The notes under the pieces: model-generated
The model's input: only the letters and a program-made list of their open reading frames with translations
What the model was told of the DNA's origin: nothing
Database searches by the model: none
Shown here: one piece after another, positions 21,945 through 23,098 of the stretch
How positions within the stretch are numbered: position 1 is the first letter of the stretch
Layout: every line of letters begins with the position of its first letter
Translations under genes and position numbers: made by a program
Sequence record: PV295200.1
From: Escherichia phage vB_Eco_BCPEco_001
Strand: one strand, 5' to 3'
Length of the DNA: 64,000 nt

Positions 21945-22399
21945 TGGAATTTAAAGACTTTTCAACGGGTCTTTATGTAGCAGCTAAGTTTTCAGAATTA
22001 ACACTTGATGCGCTGGAAGAACTTCAGCGCTCTTTACGTGTTCCTAATCCAGTTCCTAGAGAAAAAATTCATTCGACCATATGTTATTCAAGAGTAAATG
22101 TTCCGTATGTTCCATCAAGCGGAAGTTTTGAAGTAGCTTCTTCTGGACATTTAGAAGTGTGGAAAACACAAGATGGATCGACTCTTGTACTTGTGCTAGA
22201 TTCTGAATATCTGCGCTGTCGACACATGTATGCGCGGGCACTAGGTGCTACACACGATTTTGATGATTACACACCGCATATAACATTGTCTTATAATGTT
22301 GGGCCCTTATCATTTAGCGGTGATGTACAAATTCCGGTCGTATTAGATCGTGAATACAAAGAGCCTCTTAAACTCGATTGGGCAGATGATTTAAAATAA
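21941..22399 (+). CDS. 57B: gp57B; 2H phosphoesterase (Acb1-type anti-CBASS nuclease)
   Basis: 152 aa, same size as T4 57B; two H-x-T/S-x motifs (EKIHSTICY and YTPHITLSY) typical of 2H phosphoesterases. Confidence 0.7.
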
Positions 22400-22400
22400 T

Positions 22401-22452
22401 TTCACAAAGTTGTTTACATACTGATGAGGTAGTGATACTATTACCTCATCAA
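22401..22452 (+). promoter_or_regulatory. early promoter embedded in stem-loop (PeSL-type cassette, copy 1)
   Basis: TTTCACAAAGTT-GTTTAC, 18-nt spacer, TG-n-TACTAT; inverted repeat TGATGAGGTA...TACCTCATCA encloses the -10. Confidence 0.6.
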
Positions 22453-22472
22453 AATTAATTAGGAAAATAAAA

Positions 22473-22730
22473 ATGAAAACTTTCAAAGAGTTTGCTACAA
22501 AAACTACTATCACTGAATCTTCCCACGGTATGGAAGTAAAGCTTGGAATGGCTTTAGCTGAAGCTGAGCGTCTTTTCTCTCGTATTAAAGAACTTGCTGC
22601 TGCGGTCGATCCTTCATCTTTTAAAGGAGACCAAACTAAAGTTAAAGCACTTTTAGCATTATGCTCCGATGCAGGAGAAATTGCTAAAAATGGTTCTAAG
22701 ATGAAGAAACGATTAGAAGATTTAAAATAA
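22473..22730 (+). CDS. internal-protein-like protein with capsid-targeting-type N-terminus
   Basis: 85 aa; N-terminus MKTFKEFATKTTITE resembles the T4 internal protein leader MKTYQEFIAE cleaved after Glu. Confidence 0.5.
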   Translation: MKTFKEFATKTTITESSHGMEVKLGMALAEAERLFSRIKELAAAVDPSSFKGDQTKVKALLALCSDAGEIAKNGSKMKKRLEDLK

Positions 22731-22782
22731 TTTCACAAAGTTGTTTACATAGGGTTTTAGTTGTGATACTATTACCCTATCA
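22731..22782 (+). promoter_or_regulatory. early promoter in stem-loop (PeSL-type cassette, copy 2)
   Basis: Near-identical to copy 1 over about 35 nt including the preceding gene's last codons (gatttaaaataa); inverted repeat ATAGGGT...ACCCTAT. Confidence 0.6.
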
Positions 22783-22806
22783 AAACAAAACCAAATGGAA
22801 ATCAAA

Positions 22807-23040
22807 ATGAAAACTTTCAAAGAGTTTATCGCTGAAACTGCTGATGTAAAAGTTGAGTTTATTTACACTGGCAAGAAAGATAAAATGGGTGAAATGCCTC
22901 ATGGAGTTCTTCGTGATGCATTAGATAATTTCGGTCAACTCGCCGCAGAAGATTACGGTGATAAAATTGTTGTTACTGGTCCTGCTGCAGTTATTGAAAA
23001 ATGGGCAGCAGAAAATAAATCAATTTTTCGTAAAAAATAA
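22807..23040 (+). CDS. internal-protein-like protein with capsid-targeting-type N-terminus
   Basis: ATG at 22807 gives MKTFKEFIAETADV..., nearly identical to the T4 IP leader motif; 77 aa. Confidence 0.5.
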   Translation: MKTFKEFIAETADVKVEFIYTGKKDKMGEMPHGVLRDALDNFGQLAAEDYGDKIVVTGPAAVIEKWAAENKSIFRKK

Positions 23041-23076
23041 GTTTACTTTTAGATGGGGTAGTGATACTATTACCCT
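23041..23076 (+). promoter_or_regulatory. early promoter in stem-loop (PeSL-type cassette, copy 3)
   Basis: GTTTAC, 18 nt, TG-a-TACTAT with imperfect inverted repeat GATGGGGTA...TACCCTATC. Confidence 0.55.
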
Positions 23077-23098
23077 ATCAACTATTGAGGAGAATAAA

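Follow-up and report, generated by a model that had tools for sequence, protein, structure and literature searches.

The internal-protein locus of Escherichia phage vB_Eco_BCPEco_001: ip5, ip6 and their promoter stem-loop cassettes in a phage T6 configuration

Introduction

Between genes 57B and trna.4, the genome of Escherichia phage vB_Eco_BCPEco_001 (PV295200.1) carries two small genes, ip5 and ip6, and each of these, like trna.4, is preceded by a cassette in which a predicted early promoter overlaps an inverted repeat. The stretch of DNA that was analysed, referred to as the window, is 64,000 nucleotides (64 kb) long. Of the two polymorphic internal-protein (IP) loci that T-even phages have, this is very probably the first, in the phage T6 configuration 57B-ip5-ip6-trna.4. 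Repoila, Tetart, Bouet and Krisch reportedly described in the EMBO Journal in 1994 how conserved nucleotide blocks flanking the ip open reading frames (ORFs) mediate shuffling, and both the record Z35082 and the notes in the RB32 record are consistent with this account. Published work already covers the locus and its leader, the repeated blocks on either side of the genes and the shuffling model, ip5 and ip6 are already named, and the finding rediscovers, in phage T6 form, a textbook feature of T-even genomes.

That T-even phages have many ip genes sharing a conserved targeting sequence is an observation credited to Repoila et al. 1994 (PMC12373910, PMC3012670). For IPIII, packaging needs no more than the first 10 residues, positions 4 and 7 are important for targeting, and the gp21 protease cleaves after L/I-x-E (PMC9026906). 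T4 Ip1, Ip2 and Ip3 each inhibit one distinct GmrSD-type type IV restriction enzyme, with no cross-protection (PMC12373910).

Promoter early stem-loops (PeSLs) were defined, and a role in shuffling was proposed for them, by Arbiol et al. (2010), who placed the stem-loops mostly between -35 and -10 or overlapping -10 and mapped crossovers in or near the loop (PMC2839356). Comeau et al. (2014) extended PeSLs to the PST/T4 pair, with the consensus TTTACW-N17-TAYWAT, and counted five IP differences between PST and T4 (PMC4122927).

Comparison of the locus with described systems

The locus shares with the polymorphic T-even ipI locus its position between 57B and tRNA.4, its genes, the leader and the repeated blocks around each ip gene, and only the ip6 leader is different. 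The slot from 57B to tRNA.4 that holds ip5 and ip6 is the one used in T4, T2, T6, RB15, RB32 and RB51. Phage T6 has the identical order 57B-ip5-ip6-trna.4 and the same three cassettes, and record Z35082, titled 'Bacteriophage RB15 DNA for Ip5, Ip9, Ip7, Ip8', notes that its genes lie between 57B and tRNA.4. The locus is 99.7% identical to that of Shigella phage SHFML-11, and the source phage is a Tequatrovirus. A 1.8-kb query matched 763 phage records, with at least 80% of the query covered in 202; the 57A-57B region is carried by 594 records, and the same arrangement is found in 202 of these 594.

With PeSLs, the cassettes have in common an AT-rich upstream region, sigma-70-like -35 and -10 elements, a stem-loop between these elements or overlapping the -10, a Shine-Dalgarno sequence and a start codon. 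They also lie in a hyperplastic region, the flanking genes differ between close relatives, crossovers map to the loop or close to it, and the promoter fits the PST/T4 consensus. At the level of sequence, every feature by which a PeSL is recognized is found in the cassettes described here. Two differences stand out. The RB49 stems pair a G-run with a C-run and were shown to terminate, whereas the stems here are of mixed sequence and have no T-run; and the homology here reaches into coding sequence on both sides, to the final codons of the gene before the cassette and to the leader of the gene after it.

T4 IPI/IPI*, the injected inhibitor of the CT596 GmrS/GmrD type IV enzyme, occupies the same genomic slot, follows the same cassette 1 and begins with the same type of leader, MKTFKEF...TITE. 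Its mature size is similar as well (7.4-8.0 kDa, IPI* being 8.0 kDa), and for Ip5 so is the basic isoelectric point (pI). In contrast, the mature sequence of IPI is unrelated to those of Ip5 and Ip6, and the predicted folds of the latter give no IPI match.

Ip5 and Ip6 and their predicted leader

The two internal-protein genes are as follows.

22473..22730, plus strand: ip5, 85 aa, matching phrog_3499 'internal head protein' (1.2e-49); leader MKTFKEFATKTTITE, ending in the predicted gp21 site I13-T14-E15.
22807..23040, plus strand: ip6, 77 aa, matching phrog_8111 'internal virion protein' (8.2e-52); leader MKTFKEFIAE, with the gp21 motif I8-A9-E10.

The earlier note on this DNA, made from the letters alone, had seen in these two ORFs a leader like that of the T4 internal proteins. 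This holds: MKTFKEF, with which both Ip5 and Ip6 start, is identical to residues 1-7 of IPI in the T4 record and has aromatic residues at positions 4 and 7. Pairwise BLASTP of Ip5, Ip6 and IPI confined the likeness to the leader. At the predicted cleavage site, TITE followed by S in Ip5 parallels TITE followed by A in IPI, the Ip5 leader being longer and Thr-rich. The gp21 motif (I/L)-x-E is invariant among the homologues of Ip5 and among those of Ip6. An in-frame upstream ATG at 22795, which would give ip6 81 aa, was judged a less likely start.

Ip5 is 100% identical to RB15 Ip5 (Z35082), and the name Ip5 is also used in RB32, RB51, PP01 and wV7. The second gene is named ipVI or ip6 in PST, GiZh and VR7 and 'Ip6' in UniRef, and its product is 96% identical to that of the T6 gene, 97% to PST ipVI and 75% to VR7 ip6. 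Judged by these sequences, ip5 and ip6 are bona fide members of named internal-protein families. The payload genes had been called uncharacterised, which holds for their function and not for their names, in use since the RB15 deposit Z35082. A 61-aa membrane protein that had been counted with them proved to be Trna.4, which has no capsid-targeting leader and forms the conserved downstream flank. Across the window, only ip5 and ip6 carry an MK(S/T)(F/Y)x(E/D)F leader, with no further leader-bearing ORF, and no canonical ipII- or ipIII-type gene was seen downstream of the tRNA cluster (25300-29500).

Both families are limited to a handful of clusters in T4-like phages. Their mature parts are conserved, with a mean column identity within the family of 94% and 80%. 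Among the few homologues of Ip5, residues 1-12 vary and the leader is the most variable part, whereas ITESSHG is invariant and the remainder almost so. The predicted mature Ip5 has 70 aa, a mass of 7.5 kDa and a pI of 9.2, and AlphaFold models it as a helical hairpin with a predicted local distance difference test (pLDDT) score of 71. For Ip6, the predicted mature form has 67 aa, 7.4 kDa and a pI of 6.5, and the model is a small ferredoxin-like alpha/beta fold (pLDDT 82) whose best BFVD match is VR7 Ip6. The alignments under these models are shallow, as no more than 5 and 11 clusters are to be had among 5.8 billion proteins.

The ip6 leader reads MKTFKEF here and MKTYQEF in T6, SHFML-11, ASO78A and the Yersinia phage of L039 (IMG/VR). 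The MKTFKEF form of ip6 also occurs in L008, and PV368562, whose Ip6 is 100% identical, must share it. Its presence in ip6 here looks like the product of gene conversion between the tandem leaders.

As with T4 IPI, IPII and IPIII, a leader of about 10-15 residues, MKT(F/Y)(K/Q)EF...(I/L)-x-E, would direct Ip5 and Ip6 into the prohead scaffold core, where the gp21 protease would remove it after Glu, predicted after E15 in Ip5 and after E10 in Ip6. The mature proteins of about 7.5 kDa would then be packed with the DNA and injected along with it. What weighs against this is that the search turned up no virion proteome covering Ip5 or Ip6 and no direct sign of their packaging, cleavage or injection; the one virion proteome that was checked, that of phage fD1, detects the IPI orthologue g146 and neither Ip5 nor Ip6. 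The fPS-65 paper contains no virion proteome.

Anatomy of the three cassettes

The three cassettes are as follows.

22388..22472, plus strand: cassette 1, with TTTCACAAAGTT at 22400-22411, -35 at 22412-22417, -10 TACTAT at 22436-22441 after TGA, hairpin at 22422-22451, a predicted transcription start near A22448, and the ribosome-binding region AGGAAA before the ip5 ATG.
22719..22806, plus strand: cassette 2, with the DLK-stop of ip5, TTTCACAAAGTT at 22731-22742, -35 at 22743-22748, -10 at 22767-22772, hairpin at 22749-22780, a predicted transcription start near A22779, and the weak ribosome-binding region GGAAAT.
23041..23098, plus strand: cassette 3, with -35 at 23041-23046 right after the ip6 stop, -10 at 23065-23070, hairpin at 23052-23079, no TTTCACAAAGTT, a predicted transcription start near A23077, and the ribosome-binding region GAGGAGAA.

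All three consist of GTTTAC, then a spacer of 18 nt with GTGA at its end (TGn, an extended -10), then TACTAT, as had been noticed at first reading, and AGGAAA, GGAAAT and GAGGAG lie 6-12 nt 5' of the three ATGs. The 34-nt pattern GTTTAC-N14-GTGATACTATTACC has three matches in the window, all at the IP locus and without mismatch; 0.01 were expected in shuffled sequence, and three matches were reached in 0 of 100 shuffles. The 14-nt core GTGATACTATTACC itself occurs nowhere in the 64 kb except at the three cassettes. The -10 was also confirmed to lie inside an inverted repeat in each of them, with hairpin z values of -3.2 to -4.2. The upstream motif TTTCACAAAGTT, thought to belong to every copy, is present in copies 1 and 2 and absent from copy 3, which begins at GTTTAC. 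A generic sigma-70 scan lists two of the three cassette promoters, each at 9 of 12 matches with TG.

The copies share exact blocks of different lengths. Copies 1 and 2 have in common the 14-nt core and a 33-nt block, GATTTAAAATAATTTCACAAAGTTGTTTACATA, at 22388 and 22719. This block covers the final codons D-L-K-stop of 57B and of ip5, and the observation that these two copies include the last codons of the upstream genes stood up to closer inspection. Copies 2 and 3 share an exact block of 21 nt, GTGATACTATTACCCTATCAA, and copies 1 and 3 one of 18 nt. The start regions of ip5 and ip6 are in addition identical over 24 nt across the start codon (22470-22493 and 22804-22827).

Some parts of the cassettes are found elsewhere. 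TTTCACAAA(G/A)nn also stands 5' of the early promoters at 25906, 40908 and 54236, which marks it as a general element of the region upstream of early promoters and not one specific to the cassettes. What is specific to the locus is the 14-nt core, together with the stems and the leader. A second family of early-promoter cassettes, near-identical to one another, GTTTAC-AAG...-TGGTACTATACAACTATCAAC, lies at 25906, 40908 and 43044, with an identity of 0.57-0.69 over 105 nt. The window holds 13 GTTTAC-N18-TAnnAT sites, all on the plus strand.

The ribosome-binding sites differ in one further respect. That of trna.4 (23086-23093) contains GGAG, and those of ip5 (22460-22466) and ip6 (22795-22801) do not. 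GGAG is the target of the RegB endoribonuclease, which inactivates many early mRNAs. The IP messages without GGAG could escape RegB and persist to head assembly; RB32 ip9 has a GGAG-type site, and the idea is therefore not valid for every IP gene.

Gene exchange at the cassettes

The content of the slot differs between phages within Tequatrovirus. It holds ipI in T4, ip5 and an ip7-like gene in T2, ip5-ip9-ip7 in RB32, ip5-ip9-ip7-ip8 in RB15, ip5 alone in RB51 and AR1, ip7 alone in L038 and ip6 alone in L039. Among 35 IMG/VR relatives from more distant genera, it contains 0-5 leader-bearing genes with many unrelated payloads. The counterpart of cassette 1 precedes ipI in T4 and ip5 in T2, T6, RB32, RB51, AR1 and RB15.

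Natural variants that lack ip5 or ip6 have junctions that coincide with the exact 33-nt and 21-nt blocks, as would be predicted from recombination between the repeats. In the ip6-only junction of L039, ZN18, OES_C and ECO07P4/5, the end of 57B and the 33-nt block are joined to the copy-2 spacer. The ip5-to-trna.4 junction of RB51, RB68, Ac3, Sf25 and PP01 passes from the copy-2 spacer to a trna.4-type 3' half within the 21-nt block. Because the searches join pieces up to about 630 nt apart and so also count genomes with the intervening gene, only single-piece matches were used, and these lists of phages are lower bounds.

In some cassettes of T2, RB32, L024 and L031 the two arms are of different types, one at the 5' and another at the 3' side, and only weak hairpins form; such mismatched arms point to a crossover in the invariant -10 core. 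The RB32 record describes ip9 and ip7 as 'flanked by 43 bp direct repeat'. In L024 (4660-4750), a 3' half-cassette is tandemly duplicated, with GATACTATTACCTCATCAA occurring twice, 5' of an ip7-like gene, and this looks like a recombination scar within a cassette. Distant Ip5 homologues, with 47-54% identity, adjoin the lysozyme gene e in other genera. That is the position of the other IP locus, so the Ip5 family has moved between the two.

The earlier note had read the locus as an architecture for modular shuffling. Its observation is confirmed and its interpretation supported by this comparison across genomes, in which genes are swapped, added and lost at exactly these cassettes. According to the proposed mechanism, each gene stands behind a PeSL-type cassette made of a predicted T4 early promoter, whose spacer and -10/discriminator form a hairpin, and then a ribosome-binding site. 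The cassettes and the leader offer 14-33 nt of exact homology, to which the final codons of the gene upstream contribute in copies 1 and 2. Recombination between these blocks could then delete, insert or swap the modules that code for the mature proteins, and such shuffling would yield the differing gene sets of T4, T2, T6, RB15, RB32 and RB51.

Against this model, the exact blocks are short (14-33 nt), and the direction of an event, deletion or insertion, cannot be read from the sequences. Alignment of the three cassettes gave an ungapped identity of 0.53-0.66 over 105 nt, which is not above that of some other promoter pairs; the early promoters at 25906 and 43044 reach 0.69. These values would fit cassettes that are purely regulatory, that is, ordinary early promoters made alike by the long T4 consensus, with gene content varying for other reasons, for example through illegitimate recombination or through gene conversion that homing endonucleases near the tRNA cluster would drive. 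The same account would accommodate the presence of TTTCACAAA-nn-GTTTAC and TG-n-TAyTAT at other early promoters in the window, the GIY-YIG homing endonuclease gene 1.4 kb downstream, and the many relatives in which no cassette separates 57B from the first IP gene and the latter overlaps the 57B stop codon. It is very improbable all the same, since the 14-nt core GTGATACTATTACC is restricted to three sites in 64 kb, the variant junctions match exact blocks, the chimeric cassettes combine arms of two types, and the RB32 annotators recorded flanking direct repeats.

Structure and possible role of the hairpins

Hairpin 1 has 13 pairs as RNA and 10 contiguous Watson-Crick pairs as DNA (z -4.2), hairpin 2 a 7-bp outer and a 4-bp inner stem (z -3.2), and hairpin 3 has 12 pairs including G-U (z -3.2). 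The folded segments have energies of -17 to -19 kcal/mol. In each, the promoter spacer holds the 5' arm, and the 3' arm extends from the -10 as far as the conserved ATCAA, at which transcription is expected to start.

Among 42 distinct cassettes the hairpin design is kept with at least seven different stem sequences, namely GAGGTA/TACCTC, AGGGTA/TACCCT, GGGCTAT/ATAGCCC, GGGATA/TATCCC, AGGACTA/TAGTCCT, GGTCTATAG/CTATAGACC and GTAGGGATA/TATCCCTAC. When 5' and 3' halves were folded, the natural pairings averaged -10.98 kcal/mol and the swapped ones -6.39 kcal/mol, and the natural mean was reached in 0 of 2000 permutations. The permutation figure is inflated by kinship among the cassettes, which weighs against taking it at face value, and it is the several independent stem types that carry the signal. 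The greater stability of natural over swapped halves indicates that the hairpin structure appears to be under selection.

The hairpins might be intrinsic terminators, with each IP gene transcribed as a unit of its own. In the ASO78A record, all three are labelled as rho-independent terminators on the basis of WebGeSTer or TransTermHP predictions, the RB49 PeSL211/210 stem-loop cut lacZ expression about as much as rrnB T1 (PMC2839356), and the stems here are stable and show compensatory change. However, no T-run follows any of the three stems, which are succeeded by ATCAAAA or ATCAAC, and a terminator scan returned 0 sites. The terminator function of the RB49 PeSL may not apply here. Chimeric cassettes with broken stems also persist in viable phages such as T2 and RB32, and the need for the head proteins late in infection speaks for read-through rather than termination. 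The reading of the hairpins as terminators is thus doubtful, though it keeps a real share of the probability.

Regarding late synthesis, no late-promoter box lies directly 5' of ip5 or ip6. The nearest exact copy, TATAAATA, is at 21351-21358 inside gene 1, so late synthesis of the IP head proteins would need read-through. A one-mismatch copy is found at 21690-21697, just 5' of 57A. Because a transcript from a cassette's own promoter would start at the end of the 3' arm, the hairpin would be present only in read-through RNA from upstream. It is, at low confidence, most likely an attenuator or a 3'-end stabiliser of upstream messages. More speculatively, the promoter inverted repeat might serve, beyond an RNA role, as a recombination-initiation site at the DNA level, e.g. 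by cruciform extrusion and cutting. An Rfam search of the hairpins gave matches at chance level only.

Possible function of the payload proteins

By analogy with the T4 proteins, an anti-defence role of Ip5 and Ip6 is a reasonable expectation. Their most likely action once injected would be to counter one particular host defence directed at incoming DNA. Literature searches on Ip5 and Ip6 found no functional study and no assigned target. Pfam gave sub-threshold noise only for Ip5, Ip6 and Trna.4, PADLOC one weak match that was judged meaningless, and a sequence search of the PDB no match for Ip5 or Ip6. Foldseek searches with the models in the PDB and BFVD brought up nothing beyond Ip6 itself and small folds of a generic kind.

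A more specific proposal, that Ip5 and Ip6 are each an injected inhibitor of a host defence so far paired with no phage protein, is tentative and somewhat short of probable. The target could be one more subtype of GmrSD/BrxU-type type IV restriction or some other system acting on incoming DNA. The pair is common (202 of 594) and all three T4 IPs disable distinct GmrSD enzymes, which makes Ip5 and Ip6 obvious next candidates for such a specificity. Two findings count against the analogy with the T4 proteins. By sequence and by predicted fold, neither protein resembles IPI, the one T4 internal protein compared directly, or any protein of known function. The GmrSD variants of ECOR21 and ECOR17, which T4 Ip2 and Ip3 block, still restrict phage T6 despite its ip5 and ip6 (PMC12373910). 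These enzymes are therefore not the targets of Ip5 and Ip6, which differ in this from Ip2 and Ip3.

It is unlikely that Ip5 and Ip6 are instead structural or DNA-condensing head-fillers, or non-functional passengers whose leader is kept only by gene conversion from a neighbour. Against this reading, a specific GmrSD target is now known for each of the three T4 IPs (PMC12373910). In its favour, IPs are non-essential in T4 (PMC12373910). The basic pI of mature Ip5 (9.2) would suit DNA binding, the ip6 leader here was apparently converted to the ip5 type, and the searches by sequence and fold found no homology to a known inhibitor. On the other side, the mature parts are strongly conserved in each family (94% and 80%) while presence and absence vary between phages, a pattern typical of accessory counter-defence genes, and the locus adjoins acb1, a gene directed against CBASS, an antiphage signalling system based on cyclic oligonucleotides.

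If Ip5 and Ip6 are indeed inhibitors of host defence, T6 and about a third of the sequenced Tequatrovirus-like genomes would rely on this pair, and the IP locus could be viewed as a one-to-one listing of counter-defence specificities. Assigning their specificity would bear on the choice of T4-like phages for therapy.

Flanking genes

The IP genes lie in a plus-strand run that begins with the dNMP kinase gene 1 (end 21714) and 57A (21714-21944), continues through 57B, ip5, ip6 and trna.4, and is followed 3' of trna.4 by two more small ORFs and then the tRNA cluster. The two immediate flanks are as follows.

21944..22399, plus strand: 57B, Acb1 anti-CBASS 2H phosphodiesterase (Pfam PF23474 Acb1, E 2.6e-60).
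23099..23284, plus strand: trna.4, 61 aa with two hydrophobic segments, matching phrog_1692.

57B takes its name from annotated T4-like records and forms the conserved upstream flank of the IP locus; as its product is Acb1, the IP array adjoins another counter-defence gene. The gene trna.4 is annotated as tRNA.4 in T4, RB32, RB51 and AR1 and lies 3' of the IP genes in most of the loci examined.

The GIY-YIG homing endonuclease gene occupies 24683-25348, after the tRNA genes, and its counterpart in SHFML-11 bears the annotation 'homing endonuclease'. When T-even phages co-infect a cell, it provides a further source of local gene conversion between them. A 40-aa ORF on the minus strand (22391-22513) runs across cassette 1 and the ip5 start; it is annotated as ar1_148 in phage AR1 and is probably a spurious call.

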